The notes below the pieces were generated by a model that worked only from the letters and a program-made list of their open reading frames with translations, ran no database searches and was not told the origin of the DNA. From Chiloscyllium plagiosum (taxonomy: Eukaryota), in contig NC_057718.1 of the NCBI RefSeq assembly GCF_004010195.1, forward strand, positions 90,811,353 to 90,875,352: 64,000 nucleotides of DNA, given 5' to 3'. The translations under genes and the position numbers were made by a program. Of this stretch, positions 313 to 61,132 are shown piece by piece. Every line of letters starts with the position of its first letter. Position 1 is the first letter of the stretch.

Positions 313-508
313 GTCGATGGTGTGGTGTTGGAAGAACACAGCAGGACAGGCAGCATCCGAGGAGCAGGAGAATCAACCTTTCGGACATTAGCTCTTCATC
401 AGGAGAATTGACGTTTCAAGCATAAGTTCCTCGGATGCTGCCTGACCTGCTGTGCTTTCCAGCACCACACTCTATTCTGAGCTCCAGCATTTGCAGTCCT
501 CACTTTCT
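313..508. mobile_element. Short fold-back Penelope-like pLTR insertion, family A (degraded hammerhead)
   Basis: Inverted arms (..agcaggacaggcagcatccgagga.. / ..tcctcggatgctgcctgacctgct..). TSD CCTAAAGGT(A/G)ATGA at 299-312 and 509-522. Confidence 0.75.
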
Positions 509-769
509 CCTAAAGGTGATGATTCTACCAAAGCACCACAAGTGTCCTTGCTCCCTGTTGTACACTTAATCTCATCCACAGAAGGTGGGTATATACCTTC
601 ATCATAGAACCACTGAACAGTTACAGCACAAGAGACCATTCAGCCCAACAAGTCCAGGACTGCATTTTGAATCGAAACCACTATTGCATAAAAATGCTTC
701 TCCTCATGTTGCCATTGCTGAAGGTCAATACAAAGTCCTCAAGCCCAGATAGGACATATAGTCAGACAG

Positions 770-1014
770 GTAAAAACAATGACTGCAGATGCTGGAAACC
801 AGAGTTTAGGTTAGAGTGGTGCTGGAAAAGTACAGTAGTTCAGGCAGCAACCGAGGAGCAGTACAATCGACGTTTCGAGAAAAAGCCCTTCATCAGGAAT
901 ACTGATGGAGTTTAACGGTATTCCTGATGAAGGGCTTTTGCCCGAAACGTCGATTTTACTGCTCCTCGGATGCTACCTGAACTGCTGTGCTTTTCCAGCA
1001 CCACTAATCCAGAC
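770..1014. mobile_element. Fold-back Penelope-like pLTR insertion, family A
   Basis: Inverted arms of about 105 bp. TSD TA(T/G)AGTCAGACAG at 757-769 and 1015-1027. Confidence 0.8.
920..955 (+). ncRNA. Minimal type I hammerhead ribozyme motif, family A
   Basis: CTGATGA(924-930)-A-GGGC-TTTT-GCCC-GAAA-C-GTC(949-951). Stem I is weak (attc/gatt) and stem III is the loopless palindrome ACGT. Confidence 0.75.
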
Positions 1015-1027
1015 TAGAGTCAGACAG

Positions 1028-1755
1028 CATGGAACCAGGCCCTTTGTATCAACTTGTATATGCCAACCAAGTTTCCCAAATTGAAATACTGCCATTTGCC
1101 TGCATTTGGCCCATATCCCTCTACATCCTTCCTATTCATATCCAAATGCCTTTTAAATGCTGCAATTCTGCCAGCCTCCATCACTTCCTCTGGTAGCTCA
1201 TTCCATACACGCACCATCCTCGGCAGAAAAAAGATCCCATTACATCCCTTTTAAATCTTTTCCCTCTCACCTTAATTCTATGCCCTCTAGTTTTGGACTC
1301 CCCCACCCTTGGAAAAAGACCCTGGCTATTCACCTTATATCTGACCCTCATGATTTTATAAACCTCAATATGGCCAGCCCCTCAGCCTCCGATACCCTCG
1401 AAATGTTTCTTATTCATGTCCTTATTCATGTGTCTTTTAAACATTGTAACTGAACCTGCATCCACCACTTCCTCTGCAAGATCATTCCACATGTGAACCC
1501 ACTCTCTGTGTAAGAAAAATGTTGCCCCTAATGTCCTTTTAAAATTTTCTCTCACCGTAAAATATGCCTCCTAGTCTTGAAATCCCCAACTCTAAGGAAA
1601 AGACACCTGCCATTCACTTTCTCTATCCCCCTCATGATTTTATAAACCTCAACCTGCTATGTTCCACTGAAAAAAAGGTTTCAGCCTATCATTATAACTC
1701 AAACCCTCCATGCCTGGTAACATCCTGGTAAATCTTAATTCTGAACCCTCTCCAA
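1028..1755 (-). mobile_element. CR1-type LINE 3' fragments (two nested pieces)
   Basis: Minus-strand translation VRVWNELPEEVMEAG.IA.FKRHLD and CR1 3' UTR. Confidence 0.85.
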
Positions 1756-2668
1756 ATGACACCAAAATTGGAGGTGTGGTGGACAGCGAAGAAGGTTACC
1801 TCAGATTACAATGAGATCTTGATCAGATGGGTCAATGGGCTGAGAAGCGGCAGATGGAGTTTAATTCAGATAAATGCGAGGTGCTGTATTTTGGGAAAGC
1901 AAATCTTAGCAGGACTTATACATTTAATGGAAAGATCCGAGGGAGTGTTGCTGAACAAAGAGACCTTGGAGTGCAGGTTCATAGTTCCTTGCAAGTAGAG
2001 TCGCAGGTAGATAAGATAGTAAAGAAGGCGTTTGGTATGCTTTCCTTTATTGGTCAGAGTATTGAGTAGAGGAGTTGGGAGGTCATGTTGCGGTTGTACA
2101 GGACATTGGTTAGGCCACTTTTAGAATATTGCATGCAATTCTGGTCTCCTTCCTATCAGAAGGCTGTTGTGAAACTTGAAAGGATTCAGAAAAGAGTTAT
2201 AAGTATGTTGCCAGTGTTGGAGGATTTGAATTATAGGGAGAGGCTGAACAGGCTGGGGCTGTTTTCCCTGGAGCATCGAAGGCTAAAGGGTGACCTCATA
2301 GAGGTTTATAACATCATAAGGGGCATGAATAGGGTAAATAGACAATGTCTTTTCCCTGGGATGGGGGAGTCCAGAACTAGAGGGTATAGGTTTAGGGTGA
2401 GAGGGGAAAGATATAAAAGGGACCTAAGGGGCAGTGTTTTCACACAGAGGGTGGTACGTGTATGGAATGAGCTGCCAGAGGAAGTGATGGAGGCTGGTAC
2501 AATTGCAACTTTTAAAAGGCATCTGGATGGGTATATGAATAGGAAGGGTTTGGAGGGATATGGGCCAAGTGGTGGCAAATGGGACTAGATTAGATTGGGA
2601 TATCTGGTCGGAATGGATGAGTTGGACCGAAGGGTCTGTTTCCGTGCTGTACATCTCTATGACTCTAT
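1756..2668 (+). mobile_element. CR1-type LINE, 5'-truncated (RT C-terminus plus 3' UTR), with stop codon
   Basis: QMEFNSDKCEVL.FG, LYRTLVRPLLEYCMQFWSP and VWNELPEEV motifs; ends in ctctatgactctat. Confidence 0.95.
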
Positions 2669-5950: not shown

Positions 5951-6036
5951 TTCAAACAATATAGAAGCGAGACTGCATTTCTGGTTGATAAACATCGGAT
6001 TTCCTCATGGAACTTAATTGCCCTTACTCTCTGGGA

Positions 6037-6507
6037 GGAGAAAGTGAGGTCTGCAGATGCTGGAGATCAGAGCTGAAAATGTGTTGCTGGAACAGCGCAG
6101 CAGGTCAGGCAGCATCCAGGGAACAGGAGAATCGACGTTTCAGGCATAAGCCCTTCTTCCTTTTTTGGATGTCCATGGTGAAGATAAGGCGTTGGGGACC
6201 GGGGAAGTGAAAATCATGGAGGAGGTGGAGGGCATGGGTGGAGTCCCGAACGTAGGTAGGGAGCTCTTGGACTAAGGAGGACCGTGTCGAGGTATGCAGA
6301 GATGAGTTCGGTGGGGCAGAGCAGGCTGAGACAATGGGTCGGCCAGGGCAGTCAGGTTTGTGGATTTTGGGCAGGAGGTAGAAGCGGGCGGTGCAGGGTT
6401 GTGGGACTATGAGGTTGGAGGCGGTGGCTTATGCCCGAAACGTCGATTCTCCTGTTCCCTGGATGCTGCCTGACCTGCTGCGCTGTTCCAGCAACACATT
6501 GTCAGCT
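6037..6507 (-). mobile_element. Penelope-like element: inverted family A pLTR arms enclosing a frameshifted RT fragment
   Basis: Minus strand of about 6160-6428 reads TARFYLLPKIHKPDCPGRPIVSACS..PTELISAYLDT..LVQELPTYVRDSTHAL..LIFTMDIQ, the PLE RT motifs. Perfect 14-bp TSD CTTACTCTCTGGGA at 6023-6036 and 6508-6521. Confidence 0.9.
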
Positions 6508-6577
6508 CTTACTCTCTGGGAACTTTACAAATACAATGCACTTTACAAATATATTGGTTGAGAGGAGATTTGAAAAG

Positions 6578-6801
6578 GAGAAAGTGAGGACTGCAGATGC
6601 TGGAGATCAGGGTCGTGTGTGGGTGCTGGAAAAGCACAGCAGGTCAGGCAGCATCTGAGGAGCAGGAGATTCGATGTTTCAGGCATAAGCCCTTCATCAG
6701 GGCTTTCCTGATGAACGGCTTTTGCCCGAAACATCAATTCTCCTGCTCCTCAGATGCTGCCTGACTTGCTGTGCTTTTCCAGCATCCACACTTTGCAACA
6801 C
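6578..6801. mobile_element. Fold-back Penelope-like pLTR insertion, family A
   Basis: Inverted arms with ctgatga..gcccgaaac. TSD AGGAGATTTGA(A/T)AAG at 6563-6577 and 6802-6816. Confidence 0.8.
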
Positions 6802-7477
6802 AGGAGATTTGATAAGAGACATTCAGAATTATGATGGATCTGGACAGGGTGGAGTTGTTCCCATTAGCAGAGGGATCTAGAAACAGACGACACTGATTTA
6901 AAGTGAGTGGCAAAAAGAACCAGAGGTGGCATGAAGAAATTTACTTTTAATGCAATTGGTGCGGATCTAGAACATACTGCCCAGCAGAGAGCACAGTAGA
7001 GTTAGAGTCAGTTGTAGCTTGCAAAAGCGTATCAGATAATTATCCAGAGAGAAAAGTCTTTGCAAGGCTATGGGGCAAAGTCATGGGATAGATCTAACTG
7101 AGTTTCCCATTCAGAATCATAGAATGGTCACATTATGGAAGGAGGCCATTCAGCCCTTCTTCCAGCATGGACAGGGGGCCAAATTGGGGACAAAGGCATG
7201 TGTTTTTCTAAAACTGGTTATACGGGGGAGCAGAAAATATTGGTGGTCTGCTCTATGAACATAAGGGAGACTTTAATTCTGCAAATTATATTGGAAAACA
7301 TATATGTAGAACGTAAAACCATTTAAATACTAGGCATTTTTAAAAGATAAATCTGAAAGCCATCCTTAAAATGTCAAAATTCCAGACCCCTCAATTGAAC
7401 TCTATGACAAAATCCCAGTGGCACTTGGAAATGGGGAAAACACATTGCTAAATGGCATTAATATAAATGGAAGCCAG

Positions 7478-9985: not shown

Positions 9986-10900
9986 TCATAGAATATCTAC
10001 AGTGTGGAAACAGACCTTTCAGCCCAACAAGTCCACATCAACCCACCCAGACCTATTCCCCTACATTTACCCCTGACTAATGCACCTAACACTATGAGCA
10101 ATTTAGCATGGCCAATTCACCTAACCTGCACATTCTTTGGATTGTGGGAGGAAACCGGAGCACCGGGAGGAAACCCACGCAGACACAGGGAGAATGTGCA
10201 AACTCCACACAGACAGTCGCCCGGAGGCTGGAATCGGACCCAGGACCCTGGTGCTGTGAGGCCGCAGTGCTAACCACTGAGCCATCGTGCCGCCCAGTAG
10301 GAATGTTGATTCCCTACAATGTGGAAACAGACCCTTCGGCCAAACAAGTCCACACCAACTCTCCGGAGAGTAACCCACCCAGACCCATTCCCCCTGACTA
10401 ATGCACCTAACACTATGAGCAATTTAGCGTGGCCAATTCACCTAACCTGCACATTCTTTGGATTGTGGGAGGAAACCGGAGCACCGGGAGGAAACCCACG
10501 CAGACACAGGGAGAATGTGCAAACTCCACACAGACAGTCGCCCGGAGGCTGGAATCGGACCCAGGACCCTGGTGCTGTGAGGCCGCAGTGCTAACCACTG
10601 AGCCATCGTGCCGCCCAGTAGGAATGTTGATTCCCTACAATGTGGAAACAGACCCTTCGGCCAAACAAGTCCACACCAACTCTCCGGAGAGTAACCCACC
10701 CAGACCCATTCCCCCTGACTAATGCACCTAACACTATGGGCAATTCAGCATGGACAATTCACCTGACCTGCACATCTTTGGATTGTTGAAGGAAACCCAC
10801 ACAGACACAGGGAGAATGCGCAAACTCCACACAGACAGTCACCCAATTGAACCTGGGTCCCTGGAGCTGTGAGGCAGCAGCGCTAACCACTGCGCCACCG
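9986..10900 (-). mobile_element. Three tandem HE1-like V-SINEs with a near-perfect 321-bp period
   Basis: ORF-track entries at 10108 and 10429, and at 10121 and 10442, are identical and offset by 321. Confidence 0.9.
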
Positions 10901-15382: not shown

Positions 15383-15943
15383 TGATGTGGAGGAGCTGGT
15401 GTTGGACTGGGGTGGACAAAGTTAACAATCCCACAACACCAGGTTATAGTCCAACAGGTTTAATTGGAAGCAGTAGCTTTCGGAGCGTCGCTCCTTCATC
15501 AGGTGGTTGTGGAGAGTAACATTGGAAGACACAGAATTCATAGCAAAAGTTTACAGTGTGATGTAACTGAAATTATATATTGAAAAATACCTGGGTTGTT
15601 TGTTAAGTCTCTCATCTTTTTAGAATGACCATGTTGGTTTCAGTTCTTTCATATGTAAATTGCAAAACTTTTTTTAAAAGGTTACATTCTCAAGTTTGCA
15701 ATTTAAATATGAAAGAACTGAAACCAACATGATCATTCTAAAAAGATAAGAGACTTAACAAACAACCTAGGTCATTTTCAATATATAATTTCAGTTACAT
15801 CACACTGTAAACTTTTGCTATGAATTCTGCGTATTACAATCTTATTCTCCACAACCACCTGATGAAGGAGCAGCGCTCCGAAAGCTAGTGCTTCCAAATA
15901 AACCTGTTGGACTATAACCTGGTGTTGTGTGATTTTTAACTTT
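15383..15943. mobile_element. Fold-back Penelope-like insertion, family B, arms of about 250-270 bp
   Basis: About 15418-15685 is the reverse complement of about 15695-15943. Each arm has a hammerhead core. Confidence 0.8.
15853..15893 (+). ncRNA. Minimal hammerhead ribozyme motif, family B (CUA cleavage triplet)
   Basis: aaccac-CTGATGA-A-GGAGC-agc-GCTCC-GAAA-G-CTA-gtgctt. Stem I pairs at 5 of 6 positions and stem III is the palindrome AGCT. Minus-strand twin at about 15471-15508. Confidence 0.75.
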
Positions 15944-16484: not shown

Positions 16485-17240
16485 TTGATTTGATTTGATT
16501 TATTGTAGTGACATGTACCGAAGTGCAGTGACAAGTTTTGTTTTGCGAACTGTGCGAGCAGCAACAAAGAGCATAGGGTGCTCAGACAGAGTGAGGTACA
16601 CAAGGTTCCATCTGCACAGGAAGCACATAAAGGAAGTTCGACATTTGATTTGAAGTTAGGGAGGTTCAATCAGCAGTCTAATAACGGCAGGGAAGAAGCA
16701 GGTCTTGAACCTGTTGGTGCGTGTGTTCAGACTTTAGTATCTTCTGGAAAAGCACAGCAGGTCAGGCAGCATCTGAGGAGCAGGAGAATGGACATCTCAG
16801 GTATCAGTCCGAGGATGAAGGGCTTATGCCCGAAACGTCGACTCTACAGCTCCTTGGATGCTGCCTGACCGGCTGTGCTTTTCCAGCACCACACTCCCGA
16901 CTCTGATCTCCAGCATCTGCAGTCCTCACTTTCTCCTTCTGTATCTTCTGCCTGATGGAAGACGTTGTGGGAGAGCATTACCAGGGTGGGAGGGGTCTTT
17001 GATGATGTCGGCAGCCCTTCTGCGGTAGCGAGACTTGTAGATGGAGACCATGGATAGGAGGTTGGCTTGCGAGATGGTCTGGGCTGTGTACACAACCTTC
17101 TGCAGTTTCTTCTGGTCCTGGGCAAAGCAGTTGCCATATCAAGCCATTATGTACCCAGAAAGGATGTTTTCTATGGTGCATCTGTCCAAGTTAGCAAGAG
17201 TGCTTATGGGCATGTCGAATTTCCTCAGCCTCCTCAGGGA
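16485..17240 (-). mobile_element. Rex1/Babar-like LINE 3' fragment interrupted by a PLE insertion
   Basis: Minus strand reads LRRLRKFDM..CTIENILSG..AWYGNC..IIKDPSHPG, with a (gattt)n tail at about 16487-16502. Confidence 0.7.
16747..16938. mobile_element. Fold-back Penelope-like pLTR insertion, family A
   Basis: Inverted arms with gatgaagggcttatgcccgaaacgtcga. GTATCTTCTG duplicated at 16737-16746 and 16941-16950. Confidence 0.8.
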
Positions 17241-20381: not shown

Positions 20382-21107
20382 GAGCTGAAAATGTGTTGCT
20401 GGAAAAGCGCAGCAGGTCAGGCAGCATCCAGGGAACAGGAGAATCGACGTTTCGGGCATAAGCCCTTCTTCAGGAAGCTTACTGTCTTTAATTTCCGATA
20501 TGGCTAGGAAGAACTGTTTGTTTAGTTTATGGATCCTTCTGTGGATGAAGAACAGTAGAGGTCCTTTGCAGGTCTGTGAGAGTGTTGTCCTGAGCTGGGG
20601 TAGATCGAGTTGCAGGGAATGTAGGGAGCGACGCATGGCTGCAAGCGTGGAGCGAAGGATCCGGAGGGACGTCTGTTGCTGGAGGCTTCGGATTTGTTGT
20701 AGGTACTGGTTGTCCTGGTTGGGTCCAAGTTTGGTTGGTCGGAACATAATCCGGAGTCCGTGTGGGATAAGTCGGTTCCGTAGGCAGGTGCTGAGGAAGG
20801 AGATATGGCTGTGGTAGCGAGTCTGTTTGAGAATGTGGCTGAAGAGCTTCTGTGCAGAGGAGATGACCTGGGGGGTGCAGTGAGAGAGGGACTCACTGAA
20901 ATCTTTGTAGAGGGAGGAAGAGAGCTTCTTCAAGGAAGGCATCCTTGTAAGAGGATTCGCAGTAGGTTGAAGTCTTTGAGGAGAAAGTGAGGACTGCAGA
21001 TGCTGGCGATCAGAGATGGAAATGTGTTGCTGGAAAAGCACAGCAGGTCAGGCAGCATCCAGGGAACAGGAGAATCGATGTTTCGGGCATAAGCCCTTCT
21101 TCAGGAA
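20382..21107 (-). mobile_element. Penelope-like element 5' region: pLTR, ORF N-terminus, second pLTR in direct repeat
   Basis: Direct repeats 631 bp apart, each with ctgaaga-agggc-ttat-gccc-gaaac. Open frame from the ATG at 20942 contains TRYHSHISFLSTCLRNRLIPHGL, a PLE N-terminal H..FL..C....LIP.GL-type motif. Confidence 0.8.
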
Positions 21108-21927
21108 TGACCTCGCGTCAGAATTAAGCAGTATTTTCCTAATTCTTGATATCCCCAGTCAGAAGAAGTAGTAGTTTTTTTTTAAGGTATAAAATCATGT
21201 TCTATACCCCTCAATGTTCATGTGGTCAAGAAAATAGAAGCCATATTTGCGTAACTGTGTCCTTGACAGCTAATCCTCTGAACCCTGGTATAGTCCTTCA
21301 CTTTTTTAACGTTCCATAGTGTAGATGCTACTAAATGTGTGCCATTTAATTCTTTTGTCTGTATCTAAGAACGTGAGAAGTGGGAAATGGTGTAAGCCAA
21401 CAACCTCTTAAGTCTGCTCCAATACAATATGGCTGACCTCCAGCCTCAACACATTTCTGTCCACTGTTCATATCCCATGAGTCCATGGGAAACCAAATAG
21501 CAAGTATCTTAATCTTGAATATGTTCTATCATGGAGCATCCACGGACATAGAACACCAAAGATTCACATTCCCACTGAATGAAGAAATCTTCCCTCATCT
21601 CGATCCTTGATGATTGACCTGCTTATCCTGAGCCTGTGCCTCTGTGTTCCAGATTCCGCAATAGTTGCCCTAACCTCTCAGTGTCTTGCTTAGCCTTCAG
21701 AACCTTCTCCATTTCAATCAGAGCACCTCGAATTCTTCTAAATTCCAGTGAGCTCCGGCCCAGTTTGCTCAGCTTCTCAGCATTGGGCAAGCCCAACTGT
21801 GTCAGGAGCCAAGGTAATGAACCTTCAGTGCCCCATCTCCACAGTATGTAAATCCTTCAATAGATACAAAGATCAAAACTGCACTCCAAGTGCAAGAACT
21901 CCTTGTATCTGTCCACTTGCAGTAAAG

Positions 21928-22055
21928 GCGAAAGTGAGAACTGCAGATGCTGGAGATTAGAGTCGAGAGAATGGTCCTGGAAAAGCACAGCAGGTCAGGC
22001 AGCATCTGAGGAGCAGGAAAATCGACGTTTTGGGCAAAAGCCCTTCATCAGGAAT
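21928..22055 (-). mobile_element. Single family A PLE pLTR
   Basis: Reverse complement reads cctgatgaagggcttttgcccaaaacgtcga; GAAA is mutated to AAAA. Confidence 0.75.
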
Positions 22056-34775: not shown

Positions 34776-35104
34776 AGGGCTCCTGATTATTTCTCAGCTA
34801 AATCCAAAATCTAGTCTGAAGACCTTCCAATATTCTGTGACTGTCGGCATTCGGATCTTGTCGGGAATTCAATTGTGAGAAATCAGCCCATTTTCAGAAC
34901 TGAATTTGCCCCTTGACCAGAGGGATGTTGTGTTTTCTTTCCCCCTTTTGGTCTAATATTTTCCTTATCCTTACTGGCCGTATGGAGTCACATATGTCTT
35001 TGCACTGTTTGTAGGTGAATGCATGTTTGTGAGATTAAGGGGAGATATTTATTCACATATTTATTGATAACCAGATTGAAACATATGTTTGCCTGTAATA
35101 AACA

Positions 35105-36556: not shown

Positions 36557-36736
36557 TTTATCTTAATAGAAGCAAGTGCTGCTTTCCCATAAAGAACTCG
36601 CAGATTGAATTAGTATTTTATTTATCAGTGTTCCATTTGTCAAGGATTGCCTTAATCCAGTATGCACCTTCTTCCTGAGACTTTTTTTATGTAATGAAAC
36701 AGGCAGGAAGAGTGAATCCAGTAAGAACATAAAAAA

Positions 36737-36987
36737 CCAAAAGAGAAAATGCTGGAAAATCTCAGCAGGTCTGGCAGCATCTGTAAGGAGAGAAAAGAGC
36801 TGACGTTTCGAGTCTAACTGACCCTTTGTCAAAGCTGACAGCTTTGTCACAGCTTTGACAAAGGGTCATTTAGACTCGAAACGTCAGCTCTTTTCTCTCC
36901 TTACAAATGCTGCCAGACCTGCTGAGATTTTCCAGCATTTTCTCTTTTGATTTCAGATTCCAGCTTCTGCAGTAATTTGCTTTTATT
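36737..36987. mobile_element. Fold-back Penelope-like pLTR insertion, family C
   Basis: Near-perfect inverted arms of about 100 bp. Perfect 15-bp TSD TAAGAACATAAAAAA at 36722-36736 and 36988-37002. Confidence 0.82.
36851..36889 (+). ncRNA. Minimal hammerhead ribozyme motif with U3-A8 variant core, family C
   Basis: AGCT-TTGACAA-A-GGGTC-attta-GACTC-GAAA-C-GTC-AGCT. The same core is on the minus strand at 36798-36836. Confidence 0.72.
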
Positions 36988-37589
36988 TAAGAACATAAAA
37001 AAGCTTGAAATAAGAAAAGGCCCATGAAACAACCAGAGACAAGTTATAATTTGCTCCAACCCACAGGAGAATAACCTCCCTGTTCAGATGACTGAGGGCA
37101 AGTCCAGTGAAACTTTGTCCTGATTTCCCCTTTGGGTGCAGTTTCTGAATGTCAATCTAATGTCATACCTCCATTGTTCAACTTCGACATTTTCCTGCAC
37201 TGCCCTTTCCCATGAGTCTGACATGGTTCCCTTAGCAACTCATGGGAGTATTGATAAAGAGGCTCAGGGCTTTGTTACAGACCCTAATCAATTCATCTGC
37301 TTTAAAGTGCAGCAATTAATGTGACTGAACATCCACCTTCTTTCTAGCCAACACGTGTTGTGGTTCCCCTCTGATGGTAAGTGGTTACCACCTTTTGCCC
37401 AATGTGGATGTATCGTCAGTGAGGCTCCTGTAGGTAGTGGACAATACACCAAAGTAAAAATCCTACCCCATTGTAACCAAGAGATGGCAACTTTCAATTT
37501 GATACTCACTAAAATAACGGCATGTTGAAGACTCCAAAAGTCTGATTTGACTGGATCTTCTGTAAACCGAAATGACTGGAGAGGTTTCC

Positions 37590-37928
37590 AAAATCATGAG
37601 GGGCACGGATAGGGTAAATAGACAAGGTCTCTTTTTTTTGGAGGGGGAGTCCAGAACTAGAGGGCATAAGTTCAGGGTGAGAAGGGAAAGATCTAAAAGG
37701 GACCTAAGGGGCAACTTTTCCACGCAGAGGGTGGTGTGTGTATGGAATGAGCTGCCAGAGGATGTGGTGGAGGCTGGTACAACTGCAACATTTAAAAGGG
37801 ATGGGTATATGAATAGGAAGGGTTTGAGGGTGCTGGCAGGTGGGACTAGATTGGGTTGGGATATCTGTTCGGCATGGATGGGTTGGACCAAAGGGTCTGT
37901 TTTCATGCTGTACATCTCGATGACTGTG
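37590..37928 (+). mobile_element. CR1-type LINE 3' end
   Basis: SRTRGHKFRVR..QRVVCVWNELPE motif. Confidence 0.92.
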
Positions 37929-38127
37929 ACTGTTTACGTTTGTTCTCCCCCCACCCCAACAACCCGCTGTGATTTTTTTTTGGTTGCTGACTTAATTGTT
38001 TTCATTCTCCTTTCAGAATTCACTGGTTCTACTGGTTCTTCAGGAAAGCATAGGTTCAGGTTGTTAGCTCTCAGTCAGCATCCTGCCCTCACTGGTGATC
38101 ACCACAATCCCCTCTCTCATTTTTCAG

Positions 38128-38401
38128 AGGCAAAGGCTAATCAGCAGCAAGACCGTCTCCAATGGCGAACCCGAGGTTTCCATTAAAATGCCTTCAAAGC
38201 ACAACATCGAGAATGGAACGGGGCCAAGCAACTCCACTGAGAGGAGCATCAACGGGCAAAGAAGGGAAGAGGACAGAACTGAGGCCAGAAATGAAAGGGA
38301 GAATGAAAACGAGAATGAGGACAATCAGAACAACGAGAATGATGAAGAGGAGGAGGAGGAGGAGGAAGGCGAGGGGCCGTATGTACCATTCCACTTGCCG
38401 G
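38128..38401 (+). CDS. SLC24A3: SLC24A3 exon (274 nt), RQRLISSKTVSNGEPEVSIK...ENDEEEEEEEEGEGPYVPFHLP; acidic cytosolic loop
   Basis: tttcAG / GTgagt, phase 0/1. Poly-Glu stretch followed by GPY.PF, as in NCKX3. Confidence 0.95.
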
Positions 38402-38547
38402 GTGAGTTGTCCATGTTGACCGTGTTGGCAGTGTTCTTGTCTCTGAGTCAGAGAGTTGTTGGGTCAAGTCCCAGTGCAGTGCTTATAGCTGTTCTGTGCT
38501 TTTGCAGAGCCAACATCTGCCCCCTCTCCATTGCATGTAAGATATCC

Positions 38548-38878
38548 ATAGAGTCATAGATGTACAGCATGGAAACAGACCCTTCACTCCAACCTGTCCA
38601 TGCTGACTAAATATCCCACCCCAATCTAGTCCCACCTGCCAGCACCCGGCCCATATCCCTCCAAACCCTTCCTATTCATATACCCATCCAAATGCCTCTT
38701 AAATGTTGCAATTGTATCAGCCTCCACCACTTCCTCTGCCAGCTCATTCCATACAAGTACCACCCTCTGTGTGAATAAGTTGCCCCTTAGATCCCTTTTA
38801 TATCTTTTTCCTCTCACCCTAAACCTACGCCCTCTAGTTCTGCACTCCCTGACCTCAGGGAAAAGACTTTGTCTATTT
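38548..38878 (-). mobile_element. CR1-type LINE 3' end, apparently splitting a DeuSINE-like element (about 38425-38520 and 38880-39100)
   Basis: QRVVLVWNELAEEVVEA on the minus strand; flanks resemble 8020-8420. Confidence 0.88.
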
Positions 38879-40944: not shown

Positions 40945-42040
40945 GTGCAGTGGGAGGCCATTCAGCCCGTCATTGTCTACACTGGCTCTTCAAACCAGCA
41001 TTATGATTTAATGCCATTTCCCCCCCTTTCCTTGCTCAGTTGTGTCTCTTTAAATAATCTCAAATGCCAAAATTGAACCTGCCTCCACCACCCTTCCAGG
41101 CGATGCATTCCAGATCTAAATCACACATTCGGTGAAGAAACTTTTTCTGGCATCGCATTGTCTTCTTTTGCAAATCATACGCCCACTTGTTCCTTTTACA
41201 ATCAGGAACAATTTCTCCCCTCGCTACTCTCTCCAGCCCACCCAGGATTTTGAAAACCTCAATCAGATCTCATCTCAGCCATCTTCTCTCCAAGGAGAAT
41301 ACTCCCAAAGTCTTCAATCTAACCCCATAACAGAAGGTTCTCATACCTGGAACCATTCTTGTAAATCTCTTCTGCAATCTCTCCAATGTGTTCACATCCT
41401 TCTTATAGTGTGGCACATTGACTGAATACAGTACTCTAATTGAGGTCTGACAAGTCGAGAGTGCGGTGCTGGAAAAGCGCAGCTGGTCAGGCAGCAACCG
41501 AGGAGCAGGAGAATCGACGTTTCGGGCATACGCCCTTCATCAGCAATAAGCCCACCTTCCTTAGGAAGGGCTTATGCTCGAAACGACAATTCTCCTGCTC
41601 CTCGGTTGCTGCCTGACTTGCTGTGCTTTTCCAGCACCACACTCTCAACTTGTCAGACCTCAATTAGATTACTGAATTCAACTAGAATACTGTATTGTAT
41701 TCAATTAGAATACAATTAGATCTCTGGCATCTGCAGTCCTCACTTTCTCCTGAGGTCTAACAAGTGTCTGAAACAGTGTGTCTCCTTGAATTTGAAATCT
41801 CTGCCCCTATTAATAAATCCCAGGATTCGATATGTTTTATTCACTGTTCTCTCCACTTACCCTGCCACCTTCAGCGATCTGTGCACTGATGTACCCAGGT
41901 ACCTCTGCTCCTATACCCCCTTTAGAATTGCACTCCTTATGGTATATTGCCTGTCCAGCTGCTTAAAATCCATCACTTCACTTTTCTCTGCAATGAACTT
42001 CATCTGCCATCTGACTGCCCAACTTGTCAATGTCCTTTTA
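40945..42040 (-). mobile_element. Old CR1-type LINE fragment interrupted by a PLE insertion
   Basis: PHYKKDVNTLERLQKRFTRMVPGM on the minus strand. Confidence 0.8.
41456..41750. mobile_element. Fold-back Penelope-like pLTR insertion, family A, containing an inverted copy of flanking DNA
   Basis: TSD TGAGGTCT(G/A)ACAAGT at 41441-41455 and 41751-41765. Intact hammerhead core on the minus strand (ctgatga-agggcgtatgccc-gaaacgtc, about 41516-41543). Confidence 0.82.
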
Positions 42041-47012: not shown

Positions 47013-47302
47013 AACACAGATTATCACTAACACCCATGAAGTGTCATGAACATCCATCAGTGATTTCCTTTCGGGAAGGAAATCTGTCAAACTCACCTGG
47101 TTTGTCCTATATGTGACTCCCCATGGACAACTAAGCGGTTGACTCTTTGACTGTGCTCTGAAATAGCTGAGCAAGCCACTCAGTCCAAAGGAAATTGAGG
47201 CCGACAAGCCTTGGTTTTGCCCGAGGTGTCCACATCCCATTAAAGAGGTGTCACGCATCCTCTGAGCTGTGCCACTTTGGGAGGTGGGTCTCCCTGAGGC
47301 AG

Positions 47303-47514
47303 GGAGAAAGTGAGGACTGCAGATGCTGGAGATCAGAGTCGAGACTGGGATACTGGAAAAGCACAGCAGGTCAAGCGGCATCCGAGGAGCTGGAAAATCA
47401 ACGTTTCAGGCATAAGTCCGATTCCTGTTGAAGGGCTTTTGCCCGATACGTCGATTCTCCTGCTCCTCGGATGCTGCCTGACCTGCAGTGCTTTTCCAGC
47501 ACCACACTCACGGC
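47303..47514. mobile_element. Fold-back Penelope-like pLTR insertion, family A
   Basis: TSD TCTCCCTGA(G/T)GCAG at 47289-47302 and 47515-47528; hammerhead core mutated (ctgttga..gata). Confidence 0.8.
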
Positions 47515-47707
47515 TCTCCCTGATGCAGCAGAGTTCAGTCCAGAACTTGCAAGATGTCCATGCTGGGAGAAACAAGATCACAGGAGAATGTGAAATATTA
47601 TCATACTTCATTGTCCTTTTTCCTCAGTGAATTTCCTGAAAGTGAAGTCATGCAGTCACCCCATGGTTTGGAAAATAGCTATTTGAAGTGACACAGATGT
47701 TTTACTC

Positions 47708-49025: not shown

Positions 49026-50135
49026 TTTGTTAACAGCTGTTTTAAGGAGTAGGTGTTCTGGTAGTCTCGGAAATATCACAAGACAGAACAATCTGGGAGA
49101 AAATGTGAGAAGGCATCCAAAAGACTTCAGCCAGGTGCTCTGAGTGATGCACTTGCCCGTGGTGTGGTCCAGAACCTGGCTATTTAAGCCGTCTCTGTGA
49201 GGTCAGGCCCAGTGATACAAACTGGACACAGCTGTGGGCTGGCCTTCTGTCCTCTCCATTATGCTACCGGGACCACCTATGTGAGTGACCGCACTGGCCC
49301 ACAAGCTAAAATATGTCACATTTGTCCGATTACCAAATATCGGCCAACGTTTTATAGCCGCTGTTCTCTCAATTCGCCCTTCGACCTTTCTGGTGCAATA
49401 GATGAGATTTTCTTTGGCAAATTGGCTCTGTAGACGTGGGATGTTTATGAACTCCACTTTGAGAATTAATTTGAAAGATTTTAAGATTCATAAATACAGT
49501 ACTGGGTTGAAAGCATCAACATCATTGCAATTAGGGATGGACCTTAGCTTAAAAAGACATCTGTCAAGCTTGATATTGTTACTCATTTGTTCTGCTCACT
49601 CAGATGTTAGTGCTCAGGAATTCTTCCTATACCAGTATCAAGGGGTCCCAGGCAAGACTTAGCATAGGTTCGGTCCAGAGAAGGACCTTGCCTTTAGTCA
49701 TGTTCAAGCTTTGCTCTAGTTTAGTGCAATGAAAAATCAGTTTCTGTTTCACATCCCAGCTCCTCCTATGGGCTCAGATGAACAGTTTCAGGCAGTTTTG
49801 TGTCATGGGGCTCTCACACCGTTTGGACTTGGGTTAAGATGGGACAATCAATAGTCATGCGGTCAACATGAGAAAGTGTCCCCTGCTGGCACTCTAGGTG
49901 GGATTAGACTCCAGTCTGCAGCAGTGAGGGGACTCACCGAGCATCATGATGCAGACCATAAGTAAGGCAAGAATGTAGCAAAGTTTTTCCCCAATGGCAA
50001 TTATGTTGCACCTCTCTAATGCAAGAATAATGCAGGGAGCCAAAGCTTTTGTATGGAGTACTGGGAGGCACAAAGACAGAAGAAGCGAACATAATGTGAA
50101 CAACCAAAATGAATCCATAAAAGGATTCTCTGGTA

Positions 50136-50336
50136 TGATGTAGAGGAGTCGGTATTGGACTGATGCAGACAAAGTTAAAAACCACACAACACTAGGTTAT
50201 AGTCCAACAGGCTTATTTGGAAGGACTAGCTTTCAGAGCGCTGCTCCTTTGTCAGGTGATAAACAAGCAGCACTCCCAATACTAGTGCTTCCAAATAGAC
50301 CTGTTAGACTATAACCTGGTGTTGTGTGGTTTTTAA
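50136..50336. mobile_element. Fold-back Penelope-like insertion, family B (degraded core)
   Basis: Inverted arms similar to 15383-15943. Perfect 11-bp TSD ATTCTCTGGTA at 50125-50135 and 50337-50347. Other family B fragments at about 54248-54328 and 63180-63430. Confidence 0.78.
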
Positions 50337-50427
50337 ATTCTCTGGTAGTTATCTTAGTGCGAACGCCAAAACATAAAGGGTTCAGAATCCTGTGTTCAGT
50401 TACCGAGAGTAATGTGCTCTTGTCTAG

Positions 50428-50542
50428 GTCACGATAATTGGGTACACGCTCGGAATTCCGGATGTTATAATGGGAATCACCTTCCTGGCAGCTGGGACAA
50501 GTGTACCGGATTGCATGGCCAGCCTTATAGTTGCCCGGCAAG
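50428..50542 (+). CDS. SLC24A3: SLC24A3 exon (115 nt), VTIIGYTLGIPDVIMGITFLAAGTSVPDCMASLIVARQ; alpha-2 repeat, first half
   Basis: tctAG / GTaagc, phase 0/1. CaCA alpha-repeat signature G.TFLAAGTSVPD. Confidence 0.97.
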
Positions 50543-51224
50543 GTAAGCAGAGTACAGAGATCAGCACTAAGAGTAATATATTGCCACTTGATTGTTGATT
50601 TAAATGTTCAAACCTGAATTGTACAGCAAGCTGCTTATCTTGGATATAATTTGGTGGAATCAGACAGCTGCTTCTCCATCCACATATTGCAAGGTGCTGC
50701 CCTTGTAGTACATTGCAATGTTCTTCCTTTCTTAGCACTTGTGTATTCATGCTGATCAAAATAAGGAATATCCTGCAGAGAGGACGGAACATTCCTAATC
50801 CCCAAAGCTAGCTTCGAGTTCTCTCCAGCACAGTCCGGTTCTGGGTTTGATCCAAACCACTGCTCCTTCGTTTCCATCTTCAACAGTCCACACAGAAGAC
50901 AACCCACTGCCACGCTGTTGTCAATTTTCACTGAATTAATGCTCACAGCCAAGGCTCACAAAATCCACCCAATTCGAATCCATTTGGGTGAATATTGCTG
51001 CATCCTATCTAAGTTTTGTGTACTTTTAAAACAGTCTAACTTTTAGCTCCTGTCATGTTGCAGGACAATTCTAAATCAGAGCACTGAGACCTGTCCGTAT
51101 CTAAAGCCAGGGTGTGTGCAGGTTTAATGGCAACATTGATTTAAACTTCAGACATCAGCACCAAGGCCTGTTCATACACCCCTAAATAGTCCCCTAAGGC
51201 AGAAAGATAAAATAAAAAGATCTT

Positions 51225-52960: not shown

Positions 52961-54754
52961 AAGGGATGAAATGCATGAAGAATGCCCAATCCGCCCAACT
53001 TACAGGGATGCAGAGATTGTTTGGCCTCAAGAGAAGGATCGAGCATAGGGAGGGGCAAAGCCTGGGAGGTACTTAGACGGGGAAGTGAGAATTGTAAACG
53101 TGCAACAGTAGCCAACATAAGTCAGTAAGCATAAAGATGATAAATGAATGGGACTTGCTGAGATCAGCGAAGGTCTACAGAGATTGGAGGACGTCCAGGA
53201 ATAGTGAAGTCTAGAGGAGAAAAATGTGGGCGAGGTATTCGTTAGCAGACAGGCTGAGCCTGGTAAGTGGACGACTAGGTAAGTGCAAGGTAGAAGTATG
53301 CGGTCTTCATCATGGGGAGGAAATGTTGTCAAAAGTTCCGCTTGGGGGCTCCAATAGGTTGCAAATTGCCTGGGTCAGCCTGAAACAATGGATGAGCTGG
53401 AGAATAAAAATGCAGATGACAGTGCAGACTTGAAGGAGTGGGTTTCCCTGGTTTTCAGGCTGTGTGTGTCAGGGGTGGGGCTTTAAATCAGGAGGGAGCA
53501 GGTTTAGTTCTCTTACACGTCTTTGCTTTTCTCAGCTCATTACATATTCATGTGCGGATAAGGCGCCAAATCTCAAAAGCAAACAGGCAGCAAGCTCTGT
53601 CGCCACCAGATCTTCTGCTTCCATCATCTGTGCGCCATATTGAAAAAGGTCGTCTCAATGGAAATTCGGTCTTTACATCTGGATCAGGGATTCGAGTAGA
53701 TGGAAGTCAAAGGGGCCAAGCATGGACCCTTCAGCAGACTGAGACACAATGGTACAGAGCTGAGAAGAGAGGCCAGCTCTGGAGATGTTCAGGCAACGTT
53801 CTGACAAAAAGAATTAGAATAAAGATAAGGCAGTCCCACTGGTTTACAGAGCAAGGAAGATGTATCTGAGGTGAATGGTGGGATCAATTTTGCAGAAGGC
53901 TACAGAAAGGACGAGGAAGAAACCTACTCCAAGTTCATGGCCGTAATGTGTGAATTTGTGTGATTTTGATATGGATTCTACCAGTGCTCTTACTGAAGTG
54001 GAAACATGATTGGAGAAATTATGATATGGAATTGGAAGCAGTAACATGCATTGCTTTGAGAACACGCGAGGACTTTGAAGATGATGTCACAAATGGAAAT
54101 TGTTTGCAATGACTGAAGAGCCAGGAATCGTTTCAGAAGGAGCAGGGCATGATGGTGATTTTGAAATGGAGGGGACAGTATCTGAGAAAAGAGAACTGAT
54201 TACCACACCCGGTAAAGGTGGTCCAGAAGCGAAGACTGGTAATGTTTCACCCAATGAAGGAGCAGCACTCTGAAAGCTTGTGATTTCAAATAAACCTGTC
54301 GGACGATAACCTGGTGTTGTGTGACTTCTGAGCTTAGACGGGGACAAGGGAAAATAGGAAAGCCAAGGATTCTTGGCTCAGGTAGCGAGGAGAGCTGCTT
54401 TTGGGCGAAGTTATTCTTTCAGAAAGCAGGGATTGGGATTAATGTTGGCAAGGTTCACTGCAATTCACAACATCAGCAAAACAGTTCAGAAAAAGCTTGT
54501 CAATGGCACCAATTTTCTTTCAAAGTAATTAGATATTCTGGAGGGGAATGTAGAGAGTGGTTGTGTTTGTTGATGCACTGGCAGAGTCCAAAAAGACAAG
54601 GTATTAAGAGAAGTAAAAATGACAGGAATCAAAAGCAGTGCATTCATGTCTAAAACAGCAACCTGTTCCACACAAATAGACACAGTGGAGGTTCAGGTTA
54701 CATAGATATGAGCTGGAAACTGAGGTTCCGGAGAGGATGATATTGGAGGATGGA

Positions 54755-55255: not shown

Positions 55256-55733
55256 GAAGTCAGAAGACCTTAACTGGCTAAAGAAAAGGAAGCAGAGGGT
55301 CATTTCAAGAGATGTTCAATTATTCTGGGGTTGGGGAACGGTGTTGAGTAGGATACTGGGAGTCTGTGCTGACTGCTATTCCTAATGCACATAATGATCT
55401 AGAATTGTAATATCACTGCAAAATTGTTAGATTTGCACAAGGCATCAATCCAGGAGATATTGTGTACTTACAGGAGGCAGCCGGAATCTTACAAAGCCAA
55501 GATGGAGGCTTCGCTCCAATAGCAAACCATGATCTGCACAAGATAATGTACGTTTTGAGTAAAAATGGATGGTGTGTGTTCTCTGTCCATGGGTTAGACC
55601 TTAATAAGGGGAAGTGAAAGAAATATTCCAATCATTGACTGGTTCAGCACTCAACATGTCCAAAAAGTATGAGGTAACAGCAAAAGAGTGAATAGAGTGT
55701 TGGATAACGAATGACATCTTCTGATCTTCACAG

Positions 55734-55846
55734 GCATGGGAGATATGGCAGTATCTAATTCTATAGGAAGCAATGTCTTCGACATCTTGATGGGGCTTGG
55801 CCTACCCTGGACTATAAAAACAATTATGGTGAATTACGGCTCATAC
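55734..55846 (+). CDS. SLC24A3: SLC24A3 exon (113 nt), (G)[37 protein letters not shown]; alpha-2 repeat, second half
   Basis: cacAG / GTaagt, phase 1/0. [17 protein letters not shown] motif. Confidence 0.97.
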
Positions 55847-56077
55847 GTAAGTCTTCGGCTGAACCCCTGCGCGGTTATTGAGTGTAAACATATTGCAGTC
55901 TTCACCTCTTTAGCCTGACTTTATTTATCAACTTTCTGAAGTGATACACAGTGCCCAAAATGTAGTATTTGTTTCTTGGACTCTCTAACATTGCACTAAA
56001 CGTGTTGTCCTCCCCGCTTCCCAACTCATAACTCAATCCAATAGTTCACACAATTAAAGCCAGCCTTGGCAATGATC

Positions 56078-56168
56078 CTCCAGATGAAGGGCTTTTGCCC
56101 AAAATGTCAGTTTTTCTTGCTCCTCGGATGCTGCCTGACCTGCTGTGCTTTTCCAGCACCACTCTAAT
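56078..56168 (+). mobile_element. Single family A PLE pLTR fragment
   Basis: TSD CTTG(G/A)CAATGATC at 56065-56077 and 56169-56181; core mutated. Confidence 0.75.
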
Positions 56169-57301
56169 CTTGACAATGATCTGCATATTCCAACAGACTC
56201 TTTCCATTTCGACCTTTGCAAAACTACATGGTCTTCTTTCAGTGTGGGTGTCTTTCCTTCCATTAACACCTTCAACATTAAAATCCCACCAAGAGTCCGC
56301 GACTGCACCAGACAACCCCCACCCAATGATTTTTGCTCTTGATCCATCTTGAACAATTTGGATTATTCAGAAGTGTTAGATGCCGAACAACTAAAGATTA
56401 CTGAAGATGAAAAAGGAGGGAAATTGAAGCACCATGGAAATCCATCTGATGGATACAAGAGCAGCACAGTTGGAGGTGAATAGTTAAAGGTGAATGAGAC
56501 AGTACAAGTCTCCCAGGGTTGGTGATGATTCACCACGGCAGATTCGCCAACTTTGATTAGCCACTGCCAGTTCTCCACCAGCGTTTCTCCACTGTGGTTG
56601 TTTGATCTCTGGAGACTATTTGCCACCGGAAATATATATATGTACTGATTGTTTTCCCTCTCACCTGTTCTTTCATACTTCTCAGTCCCCTTTATTTATC
56701 CGACTACATACTACATACTGATAAAAAAAAGAGGTAAAATAAATATCATTTTATTGGTTTATATATAAAAATGAGTTACAAACTTTAACCAGAAAAAGGA
56801 AATATATTTTTAAAATCTTTATATTGGCAGTAAAATCTCACATTAATATTAAACAATGAAAATTTTTAGTTCATTTGATAGTTATGCGCTATTCCTCTAA
56901 GATATTCCAAAGAATCTCTTTCACCGTATTCAAGAACAATTTTTTTTATTCTATCGTTTGCGTCTCGATTTCTTTTAGCTTTATTTGTGGTGGGTAACCC
57001 GCTATCAGCTGTTCCATATATAAATCACGCCCCTTTTGCACTTTCATTAACGTTCCAATAAATTTCCATATAATTGGGTGGTGAGCTCCGAGTTCAAAAG
57101 CAATTCTCCGATGAGCAGCTTCAGCATGATTATTTGTGCGATCTTCATCGTTTATTGTTGTCTCATAGACCGACCACATATCATGGGGAAACAAAGGTGC
57201 CCTTCGGCTACTGCCATATCTATTTTTCCTCTGCTCCGTTATCCGGCTTATATACTTTGTATCTAATTGGAATCACCAAATGCTGAAGATCAGTAGGGTT
57301 T

Positions 57302-57540: not shown

Positions 57541-58029
57541 NNNNNNNNNNNNNNNNNNNNNNNNNNNNNNNNNNNNNNNNNNNNNNNNNTTTTTAGTTCA
57601 TTTGATAGTTATGCGCTATTCCTCTAAGATATTCCAAACAATCTCTTTCACCGTATTCAAGAACAATTTTTTTTAATTCTATCGTTTGCGTCTCGATTTC
57701 TTTTAGCTTTATTTGTGGTGGGTAACCCGCTATCAGCTGTTCCATATATAAATCACGCCCCTTTTGCACTTTCATTAACGTTCCAATAAATTTCCATATG
57801 ATTGGGTGGTGAGCTCCGAGTTCAAAAGCAATTCTCCGATGAGCGGCTTCAGCGTGATTATTTGTGCGATCTTCATCGTTTATTGTTGTCTCATAGACCG
57901 ACCACATATCATGGGGAAACAAAGGTGCCCTTCGGCTACTGCCACATCTATTTTTCCTCTGCTCCGTTATCCAGCTTATATACTTTTTTTCTAATTGGAA
58001 TCACCAAATGCTGACGATCAGTAGGGTTT

Positions 58030-58292
58030 GATTAGATTAGATTACTTACAGTGTGGAAACAGGCCCTTCGGCCCAACAAGTCCACACCGACCCGCCGAAG
58101 CGCACCCACCCAGACCCATNNNNNNNNNNNNNNNNNNNNNNNNNNNNNNNNNNNNNNNCACGGGGAGAATGTGCAAACTCCACACAGTCGGTCGCCTGAG
58201 GCGGGAATTGAACCCGGGTCTCTGGCACTGTGAGGCAGCAGTGCTAACCACTGTGCCACCGTGCCGCCCACAAGTGCCACCGTGACGCCCAC
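58030..58292 (-). mobile_element. HE1-like V-SINE nested in the MULE (second copy)
   Basis: Same insertion junction (cagtagggttt-gattag) as the first copy. Confidence 0.88.
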
Positions 58293-59808
58293 TTATAGTG
58301 GCGCTAAACTAATATCATTCCTTTTTCGTCGAATTATTTTCTTCATGCTGCTTGTCGTCGGTAAAGACGCTAGGAGTGACTGAGGGACATCAGCTACACA
58401 TTCGTTAATAAAAACACTAGGTACTTCCTGTGATTCTTCTGCACGACGTTTTAAACTTGTTTTCACTTTCGTAACTTAGACACTTGCTGCGGAAGGAGAA
58501 TGTGTGTGTCCATTTGTTGTTTTTATCACAGTGCCACTCTTGGTGTCGATCCGTCCATTACATCGGCCCTTTTGTTTACATCGCCAAAACTTAAAACTCG
58601 AATCACTCTTGGATAGTTTATCAAAAACATATATAAAATCATCATGGTAAAACTTCTTGTTTCCACGATTACTAATAATTTCTGTTTCCATTTTGAAGAC
58701 TTGAGGGTAAATGGGAAAAAAATACAAGCTTAAAAGAAGGGCAAAGGGCAGTGGCTAATCATCGGCAGTGAATCTGCTTATTTGCGGAATCGTCTTCAGT
58801 GGCCAATGGGCGGTGGTTAAGTGTCCTCGGTGGTCTAAGGGCAGTGGCTAATCGTCGGCAGCGAATGGTCCCAACACAGTCTCCCATCTCCTCCTTTCCT
58901 CGCTGCCTGCTCCCAAACCAGAGACACAGAATATCATCATTTCACAAGTGTCTGGACACCCCAGCTGGTCACTGAAACTAACTAAGACTTTCCAAATAGC
59001 ACCAGTTCATTTGGCAGGTCACCTGGGATACTAACAACAATTCACCTGCACAGACATCTGAGAATGTCTTTGGCCAGATCGGTAAAGCTGTGAACCGAAC
59101 TCTCAAAGAGCTGCCGCATAGCCGGAATTTCAGACTCATTGAGGGATACGTCAGACAAACACAGGCTTAAGCACTCGACAGAAAGAAAACCAGAAGAATT
59201 GTGGATGCTGGAAATCTGAAGCAAAACCAGAAATTGCTGGAAAATCTCAGCATCGGTGGAGTGAAATTCGCGTTAACATTTCGGGCCCTGTAACCCTTCC
59301 TCATAACGTACGGAAGCACTGGCCATTGAAAAATCCAAGGCAGTTAGTCATTTCTGAAGCTTAGATGGAGGAAAACCCAACATAGCAGACGCCAAGGGAA
59401 GAGTCCAGAACATCGAAGAATCCTCTGGCCAATTCTCCTGCACCTAGGACCTTCCAAAATCATCCATTTCAATTCGAGGGTTCCCCTGCAGTTAAATAAA
59501 TTTTCACCCCAGAAATGTTGGACCAGTTAAAACCCAGCTTAACCCTGAAGTAACTATTAAACTGACCCTGAATCTGTCACATTAACCCCCTACAAGCTCC
59601 AGACCCTGATACAGCCCTGCCCCACAACCATGGACCCTACACCCACTCTCACCTCTGGACCTAATTCCTCTTTCCACCTGACCTGACAACTTGCACCACA
59701 CTTACCTTTTACCTTACCCATCCAGCACCCTACAGTCCTGGCACCTGATACAACTGGCACCCTAACTTCACAGTTATGCAGTTAGCCTTTCCCAGGAGTT
59801 GTCAAAGT

Positions 59809-60092
59809 AATGAATTTTGAGAAGATTTGTAGCTCTGGTTGAGGCTCTGGATATAAGTTTGCTCGCTGGGCTGGAAGGTTCGTTTTCAGATGTTCTGTCA
59901 CCGTACTAGGTTACATCATCAGTGAGAGTCTCCGGTGAAGCACCGGTGTTATGTCCCGCTTCCCTAAACACATAAATAGAAAGCAGGACATAACACCAGT
60001 GCTTTGCTGGAGGCTTACTGATGATGTTACCTAGTATGGTGACGAAACGTCTGGAAACAAACCTTCCAGCTCAGCAAGCAAACCTACATCCA
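59809..60092. mobile_element. Fold-back Penelope-like insertion, family D
   Basis: Inverted arms at about 59845-59962 and 59978-60095. TSD-like GAG(T/C)TGTCAAAGT at 59796-59808 and 60093-60105. A fragment of the same family lies at about 60875-60925. Confidence 0.75.
60015..60054 (+). ncRNA. Minimal hammerhead ribozyme motif, family D
   Basis: tta-CTGATGA-T-GTTACC-tagtat-GGTGAC-GAAA-C-GTC-tgg. Confidence 0.75.
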
Positions 60093-61132
60093 GAGCTGTC
60101 AAAGTGGCTATCTGTGATGATGGACATGTAAAGCACAGAATCCATCAATTGATGCCGTCAAAAAGGGGACTTGGCTTGACTTTCCCTGACAATCCTGCAC
60201 TTCACAGGATCTGTCAGGTCTAAAGCACACTCCGCATTTCTGAAGGAACCCTGGTTGGAATCTCCTGTCAGAAATGGGGAGCTCTTTCTCAACATTAAAA
60301 ACAAAGTAGGTCAGCACTCTTTGGAAAATTAGCCCATTATATCCATCTGGATTGTTACAGGGACGTGGTATATAATGCAGACTGATAACTGTGAATGTTA
60401 CGATATTGAGGTGGCCCCTGTAAGAATGGGATGTCCAGCAATTCCATTATGTCCACGACAAAGAGATATCCCTTCCTTAATTATCAGAGTCAGAAACAAT
60501 AAAGCAAAAATGGATTTATATAATGTCAAGGCTGGGAGTGCCCTTAATTGTAGGTATTGGTTTCTAAGGATAGCGATCCTTCTGATACTGCAATATTCCT
60601 TACCAATGGATTTAAGACAGAATGACATCAAGCATCATTGCGATTACTCCCCACACCCACATGAAGTAGCATGCCAATGCTTGCTGTCCAAGCTCATACA
60701 TGAAGAATGTACTGATAACCAGGGAAAGCCAGGTCCTGTGCACCTATGAGTCATTGCCACAGATTTCCAAGATGGTCACATATTGGAAGATATTTTGAAT
60801 ATAGAGAACACTTATTACAAAATCATGGGCAATTGGTTCTCTGATCTATTGCTTTGAGACATTGGAATAACTCGCAAGGTTTGAGAAGATTTGCAGGTCA
60901 GGTTGGGCAAACTACATCCAGAATTGGAATAGCTGTTCCGTTGTCTATGAGAGTCGATAGAAGGTGACAGTGTGAAAACAAAGAAAGCGACAGATTAGTT
61001 GATGAGCTGGAGCTTAAACCGTAACATTTACATCTTGCTCCACTCGGCAGAAATCAGCTTGAAAGTAGTCTAACACGAACACTGTGCATTTTTCTAACAA
61101 GGACATAAAATATTCTCTTTTCCTTTCTGTAG

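Follow-up and report, generated by a model that had tools for sequence, protein, structure and literature searches.

The window considered here, a stretch of 64,000 nucleotides of the Chiloscyllium plagiosum genome (contig NC_057718.1), contains two exons of a Na/Ca exchanger (PF01699), putatively of SLC24A3, a label that agrees with NCKX3 residues; a search of the PDB did not settle the paralogue. Repeat searches and self-BLAST over the whole window located 11 head-to-head fold-backs of ~0.19-0.56 kb each, in agreement with the original prediction of about 11 insertions made of two inverted arms. The target-site duplications that it had described were recovered as direct repeats of 10-17 bp, with at most one mismatch, around 10 of the 11 fold-backs; none was found around the fold-back at 15384-15943. 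Ten fold-backs are asymmetric, carrying a tail of 30-35 nt on a single arm, and the remaining one is tail-less. Four arm types (A to D) are present, and a core motif scan placed the four minimal hammerhead motifs of the window exactly where they had been reported (Table 1), but the types cannot be counted as four unrelated families, A and C being 77-79% alike over ~60 nt, with endonucleases that are 57% identical. The fold-backs are probably dead-on-arrival insertions of Penelope-like elements (PLEs) in which both ends of a staggered cut primed reverse transcription.

The sequences to which they are joined identify the arms of every type as the 3' ends, or pseudo-long terminal repeats (pseudo-LTRs, pLTRs), of PLEs of this genome that encode a reverse transcriptase (RT) and a GIY-YIG endonuclease, and the proposal that the insertions are ribozyme-bearing PLE remnants is upheld. 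The endonuclease is linked to all four families, in family C through a single long copy (L081), and RT sequence lies further upstream for A, B and D. Several of the 30 top family A loci run upstream into RT and GIY-YIG frames, and in 20 family A loci picked for long RT frames the order is RT, CxxC linker, endonuclease, pyrimidine-rich 3' untranslated region (UTR) and arm. The 749-aa frame of one family A locus (L225) matched RVT_1 with E 1e-8 and GIY-YIG with E 3e-4, just under the cut-off, and another (L030) gave a GIY-YIG match above it. In the B, C and D loci endonuclease-like frames stand directly upstream of the arm, in sense; Pfam returned a weak match (E 0.01) for one of two D frames tried and no match for the single B frame tried. 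The CxxC linker is present in the A, B and C frames and was not seen in the D frames. A zinc-finger-like linker between RT and endonuclease marks Neptune and Nematis, and Poseidon is without it; from the linker, rather than from a tree with reference elements, A, B and C are classed as putatively Neptune-like (or Nematis-like) and D as putatively Poseidon-like. The closest named proteins to the open reading frame (ORF) of the element are those of Chiloscyllium, Rhincodon and Mobula.

In four of seven family A loci examined (L314, L317, L318 and L320) there is a tandem junction in which the 3' UTR is followed by the hammerhead, the tail, ~35 nt and the ATG of a long ORF. A sequence common to the copies beyond the tail was not found among the loci first collected and came up in a targeted search with the 5' part of the ORF, by which these junctions were recovered; partial tandems were looked at in family A only. 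As pLTR, tail and ATG follow one another in the tandems, the arm with its tail should also represent the 5' end of the transcription unit. Another family A frame (L217:3882-6560) has one segment repeated several times in tandem within its N-terminal part, which may be an assembly artefact. Within the window, one copy (6037-6504) contains an RT fragment between its arms; the fragment has the orientation of the tailed arm and directly adjoins its 5' end, as would be expected if the complementary DNA (cDNA) had jumped to an internal part of the RNA after run-off.

The regularity of these insertions was assessed in a sample chosen by position, for which 24 contigs of the 3.56-Gb genome supplied 24 blocks of 50 kb taken at round coordinates (1,151,263 called bases, ~1.15 Mb). 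It contained 328 arms (173 A, 70 B, 52 C-like, many of them divergent relatives, and 33 D), which formed 62 head-to-head pairs, with five pairs in C and three in D; first-pass pairing gave no tail-to-tail pair and one cross-family pair. The abundance that had been supposed for the genome is thus confirmed at ~54 fold-backs per Mb, or ~190,000 genome-wide by extrapolation, and the pLTR arms alone make up ~2.5% of the sample (28,820 of 1,151,263 bases). Duplications of at least 10 bp flank 44/62 fold-backs and 30/202 solo arms, compared with 7/212 controls with mismatched flanks, and their length varies from 11 to 18 bp. One family C fold-back (L065) is flanked on both sides by similar sequence of ~53 nt, which exceeds the usual length of the duplication. 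Most fold-backs measure 0.1-0.25 kb, and they belong to a continuous series of lengths that reaches 1,160 nt and includes ORF-bearing copies, L230 among them.

The distribution of the tails is strict: 56 of the 62 pairs have one tail, six have none, and no pair has two, against an expectation of 12.6 two-tailed pairs (P ~7e-7). All three family D pairs obey the rule, and solo arms are divided into 97 with and 107 without a tail. In the corrected data on the 56 one-tail pairs, the 5' reach is greater for the tailed arm in 15 and for the tail-less arm in 23, and it is equal in 18, so that either arm can be the longer. The length classes of partner arms are correlated (both long in 8, mixed in 6, divided 1 + 5, both short in 42; Fisher P 7e-6), and partners agree at subfamily sites in 251/284 comparisons for A (0.88) and 95/124 for B, where 0.50 is expected at random in each; two of 28 A pairs and two of 14 B pairs are discordant. 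The arms of the window fold-back at 770-1014 differ in the family A variant just before the tail position, a possible case of two templates. Among the C arms, an apparent difference in base between those with and those without a tail was dropped as query bias.

The 5' ends of the arms were mapped by BLAST against a library of long copies, as the A subfamilies differ in their 3' UTR, with correction for arms running through their partner. Counted from the hammerhead core, they accumulate in the 8 nt before it (45/173 A and 17/70 B arms), and only 5 A and 2 B arms end within the 8 nt around the predicted cut site. The product of ribozyme cleavage was for this reason rejected as the main template, few 5' ends lying near +28. 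Among 30 C loci chosen by similarity, most begin at -4 and only four clearly continue into the 3' UTR. Exact genome-wide counts of the base just before position -4, where ATTC precedes the core, gave for subfamily A2 15,396 C, which is templated, 3,444 G, 1,634 A and 646 T; G therefore accounts for 60% of the untemplated cases versus ~26% expected, the background ratio of G to T being 0.76-0.96. At a control truncation site T outnumbered G (54 G, 144 T). None of the 20 first G loci continues into the 3' UTR; ten adjoin an inverted partner and ten are solo. The G excess of A2 fits copying of the 5' cap, of which an extra G is the mark in L1 insertions of full length (PMC11702581). A TATA box, TATAAATA, begins 32-33 nt above -4 in four long C copies; in B, TATAAAT stands some 40 nt upstream of the core, and A has no more than a TTATCT motif.

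The hammerheads themselves appear to decay in the dispersed copies. The core scan detected 9 of the 22 fold-back arms of the window, one of which (50255) pairs C3 with A8, and in the sample the complete motif is kept in 44/173 A, 14/70 B, 1/52 C-like and 4/33 D arms (63/328 in total). Across copies the core is conserved no better than its flanks, and its CpG positions are down to 71-88%, as in neutral DNA. Stem I has 3-4 bp of family-specific complementary sequence, perfect in A3 and C and mismatched at pair 3 in A1 and A2. A search of Rfam with E up to 5 gave no match to a hammerhead family and only sub-threshold hairpin matches, microRNA families included. When five motifs were folded as single strands, stem II formed in all five and the full hammerhead fold in none. 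A fold-back transcript is unlikely to fold as a ribozyme, because its arms would pair with each other. The identity of the hammerheads thus derives from the motif, and their cleavage is a prediction. One RNA run, from an uninformative library, had no reads ending at the predicted cut site, and among the RNA contigs there was one weak joint leading from the tail back to the core, which may be a genomic tandem.

The interpretation that we hold to be probable is that an autonomous PLE left each fold-back as a single, dead-on-arrival insertion, both ends of a staggered cut having primed RT, one per fixed start site, on uncleaved and likely capped sense RNA. Beyond what is observed (element identity, anatomy, the tail rule, the pile-up at -4 and the G excess of A2), it supposes a capped start at -4, two cDNAs and their joining by microhomology. 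Transcription would start at -4, the first base of stem I, which would place the two RT start sites only ~90 and ~125 nt from the cap, so that priming in the 5' pLTR would give short run-off cDNAs that resemble a strong-stop product and carry a C templated by the cap. The longer arms, up to ORF-bearing copies, would come from priming in the 3' pLTR. The two cDNAs would then be joined head to head by microhomology, repair leaving the duplication of 11-18 bp, and loss of one cDNA would produce a solo arm, tailed or tail-less at about equal rates. The hammerhead would be selected in master elements and not in dispersed copies, its cleavage product not being the usual template.

Several points weigh against this interpretation. 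Family D has no pile-up (0/33 arms with a 5' end at -8 to -1), the library of 5' ends held one long C copy only, and a few ends needed correction. The genome-wide G count covers subfamily A2 only, and its control, the truncation site, is imperfect, as its own TTT run favours T and it was read with a second filter letter. Judged by eye, microhomology with the target or with the partner arm is an alternative reading for most of the 20 G junctions, although an extra C on the cDNA would itself favour such joins. A small unbiased A sample gave, by eye, 8 G, 6 A, 0 T and 5 templated C; the family C junctions, few and mixed, have G in 5 of 13 unexplained rows; and no G excess was visible in B. The single RNA run with reads covered both strands of the pLTR with no concentration of starts or ends. 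The tandem junctions come from family A alone, and the two cDNAs may have had one template RNA or two.

The inverted arm might instead result from self-priming or copy-back on a single first cDNA or on an antisense template (PMC3846280), with the tail arising from endonuclease resolution of the intermediate (PMC8557442). Palindromic junctions do recur, in 8 of 28 C junction rows, the arms of a pair are correlated in length class and share subfamily sites, and exactly one tail per pair is what any ordered two-step process gives. Copy-back cannot, however, add a tail that is absent from its template. Under this scheme a tailed arm should never be exceeded in 5' reach by its partner, yet the tail-less arm is the longer in 23 of 56 pairs, an argument that could lose force if palindrome centres were later deleted asymmetrically. 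Solo arms, moreover, show the pile-up and the extra G as well (10 of the 20 G loci), and both features fall on the 5' edge of the sense strand; on the whole copy-back is regarded as improbable. Two-ended priming could also be right and the pile-up at -4 have a different cause: RT may stop there, the RNA may be spliced or processed there, or C may be added without a template at a structure boundary. The position coincides with the 5' edge of stem I; in C it is preceded by a pyrimidine run ending in AG; an intron of Drosophila Penelope ends at helix I (PMC4209133); and no RNA start was seen. Yet copies starting at -4 have no upstream exon sequence in common, a hairpin should halt an RT that travels 3' to 5' at its 3' foot rather than at its 5' edge, G is not favoured at the control site, and the TATA box of C stands at the expected distance, all of which makes such a cause quite doubtful.

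The original prediction also offered a description as non-autonomous derivatives, similar to miniature inverted-repeat transposable elements (MITEs) or retrozymes, and this part of it is not supported. Multiplication of the fold-backs as units would agree with their density, with the small size of most of them, and with the recurrence of the same AGCT palindromic junction in C. Against it, the junction types of all 62 sampled pairs are distinct, the ends are asymmetric, the duplications vary in length, and sizes grade without a break into ORF-bearing copies. No hammerhead-bearing tandem array was found in the window, no head-to-tail arrays were seen, and only 10 same-strand neighbours, scattered, occur among the 328 arms. 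Such units are accordingly considered very improbable, and the fold-backs are treated here as probable products of two-ended priming.

As objects the insertions are ordinary for PLEs, being new members of known PLE clades, and it is their number and regularity that matter. Inverted pLTRs, one-sided tails, target duplications and minimal hammerheads have already been published (PMC3846280, PMC8557442, PMC4209133). Like the endonuclease-bearing (EN+) PLEs described there (Neptune, Penelope/Poseidon; PMC3846280, PMC8557442), the shark elements have a single ORF with RT and C-terminal GIY-YIG, a pLTR and partial tandems, and a 5'-truncated inverted copy placed head to head, a tail of 30-40 nt on one end and a target duplication are likewise shared. 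The rotifer examples in these papers have duplications of 8-10 bp, shorter than the 11-18 bp of the shark, and most shark insertions, unlike published EN+ PLEs, consist of the pLTR only on both sides, at the density given above. For the absence of two-tailed pairs, the pile-up at -4 and the extra G, no counterpart was found in the available parts of the same two papers. The motifs resemble the minimal PLE hammerheads of PMC4209133 in lacking loop 3, in the palindromic 15.2-16.2 segment, in the extra base after position 9, in the short stem I and in the U3-A8 variant; many dispersed single or opposite-strand motifs, as here, and weak activity were reported there. They differ in a stem II of 4-6 bp, in a stem I of only 3-4 bp and in the mismatch of A1 and A2, and sharks are not named in the available part of that paper.

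With Poseidon of Anolis carolinensis in vitro, both strands were cut and extended, two RT start sites bound the tail, ribozyme cleavage was dispensable and a dimer was predicted (PMC11167929). The Anolis ORF starts inside the hammerhead, whereas the ATG of family A lies ~35 nt past the tail, and the portion of that study available neither assigns one start site to each target end nor reports cap copying. Non-LTR retrozymes (10.64898/2026.07.22.740005) are similarly short and non-coding, with a type I hammerhead and an origin from PLE pLTRs, and one cartilaginous fish was sampled there; they are head-to-tail repeats with a ribozyme per unit, in contrast to the head-to-head shark fold-backs with their target duplications. 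Twin priming of L1 shares the capacity of both target ends to prime, the extra G at full-length 5' junctions and discrete duplications of 12-18 bp, but inverts the 5' part of the element without duplicating its 3' end, whereas both shark arms copy the same segment (PMC11702581). In a literature search, outside which older Penelope structure papers, Repbase and Dfam lay, none of the papers listed dealt with PLE hammerheads of sharks, nor with the copying of caps or the formation of strong-stop products by PLEs.

Table 1. Fold-backs, solo arms, hammerhead motifs and exons of the window (positions in nt).
Feature	Position	Strand	Target duplication	Remarks
Family A fold-back	313..508	left arm (-), right arm (+)	299-312 / 509-522	left arm without tail, right arm tailed
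Family A fold-back	770..1014		757-769 / 1015-1027	left arm tailed, right arm tail-less
Family A fold-back	6037..6504		6020-6036 / 6505-6521	piece of the element's own ORF between arms
Family A RT ORF fragment	6165..6428	(-)		88 codons; 79% to L225 protein, E 7e-36
Family A fold-back	6578..6801		6563-6577 / 6802-6816	one tail
Family B fold-back	15384..15943		none found	one tail; both arms extend ~165-190 nt into 3' UTR
Family A fold-back	16747..16940		16737-16746 / 16941-16950	one tail
Family C fold-back	36734..36987		36722-36738 / 36988-37004	one tail; both arms end at -4 of core
Family A fold-back	41431..41670		41421-41430 / 41671-41680	tail-less; ~20 nt inverted non-element sequence at both ends
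Family A fold-back	47303..47514		47289-47302 / 47515-47528	one tail
Family B fold-back	50136..50336		50125-50135 / 50337-50347	one tail; ~80 nt before host exon
Family D fold-back	59809..60094		59796-59808 / 60093-60105	one tail
Family A solo arms (three)	20382-20476, 20989-21109, 21940-22055	(-)
Family B solo arm	54254..54327	(+)
Family A solo arm	56078..56168	(+)	56065-56077 / 56169-56181	13-bp duplication
Family B solo arm	63181-63326	(-)
Family A minimal type I hammerhead motif	924..951	(+)		weak stem I (pairs 1, 2, 4 only); predicted cut after 951
Family B minimal hammerhead motif	15859..15887	(+)		palindrome AGCT, triplet CUA, 3-bp stem I
Family C minimal hammerhead motif	36855..36885	(+)		U3-A8 core variant, 4-bp stem I
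Family D minimal hammerhead motif	60018..60051	(+)		6-bp stem II, 3-bp stem I
Host exons	50428-50544, 55733-55855	(+)		Na/Ca exchanger

The non-element extension shared by both arms of the tail-less fold-back at 41431-41670 may represent a 3' transduction or a later conversion between the arms. The family B hairpin that ends with its duplication at 50347 lies near the branch-point region of the coding exon at 50428. Other inverted pairs of the window (1015-2660, 34649-35360 and 37616-38878), 70-93% alike and 0.2-1.4 kb apart, belong to a different repeat class; a 36-bp minisatellite of 47 copies (24107-25810) and a 321-bp unit in 2.3 copies (10070-10797) are also present.

For annotation the consequence is that pLTR arms will be mistaken for MITEs, short interspersed elements (SINEs) or, in view of the sub-threshold Rfam matches, microRNA hairpins. 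How the inverted and tailed insertions of PLEs originate is an open question according to PMC3846280 and PMC8557442, while the first in vitro system leaves later steps unvalidated (PMC11167929); the rule of never two tails, the pile-up at -4 and the extra G yield sharp predictions for that system. We are inclined, by a modest preference, to the wider proposition that transcription of Neptune-type PLEs begins with the first base of stem I and that the capped, uncleaved RNA gives rise to masses of strong-stop-like run-off cDNAs, with exactly one of the two RT start sites used at each target end. The shark genome would then hold the record of ~190,000 two-ended priming events, which would decide between the sense two-primer and the antisense self-priming models of PLE insertion.

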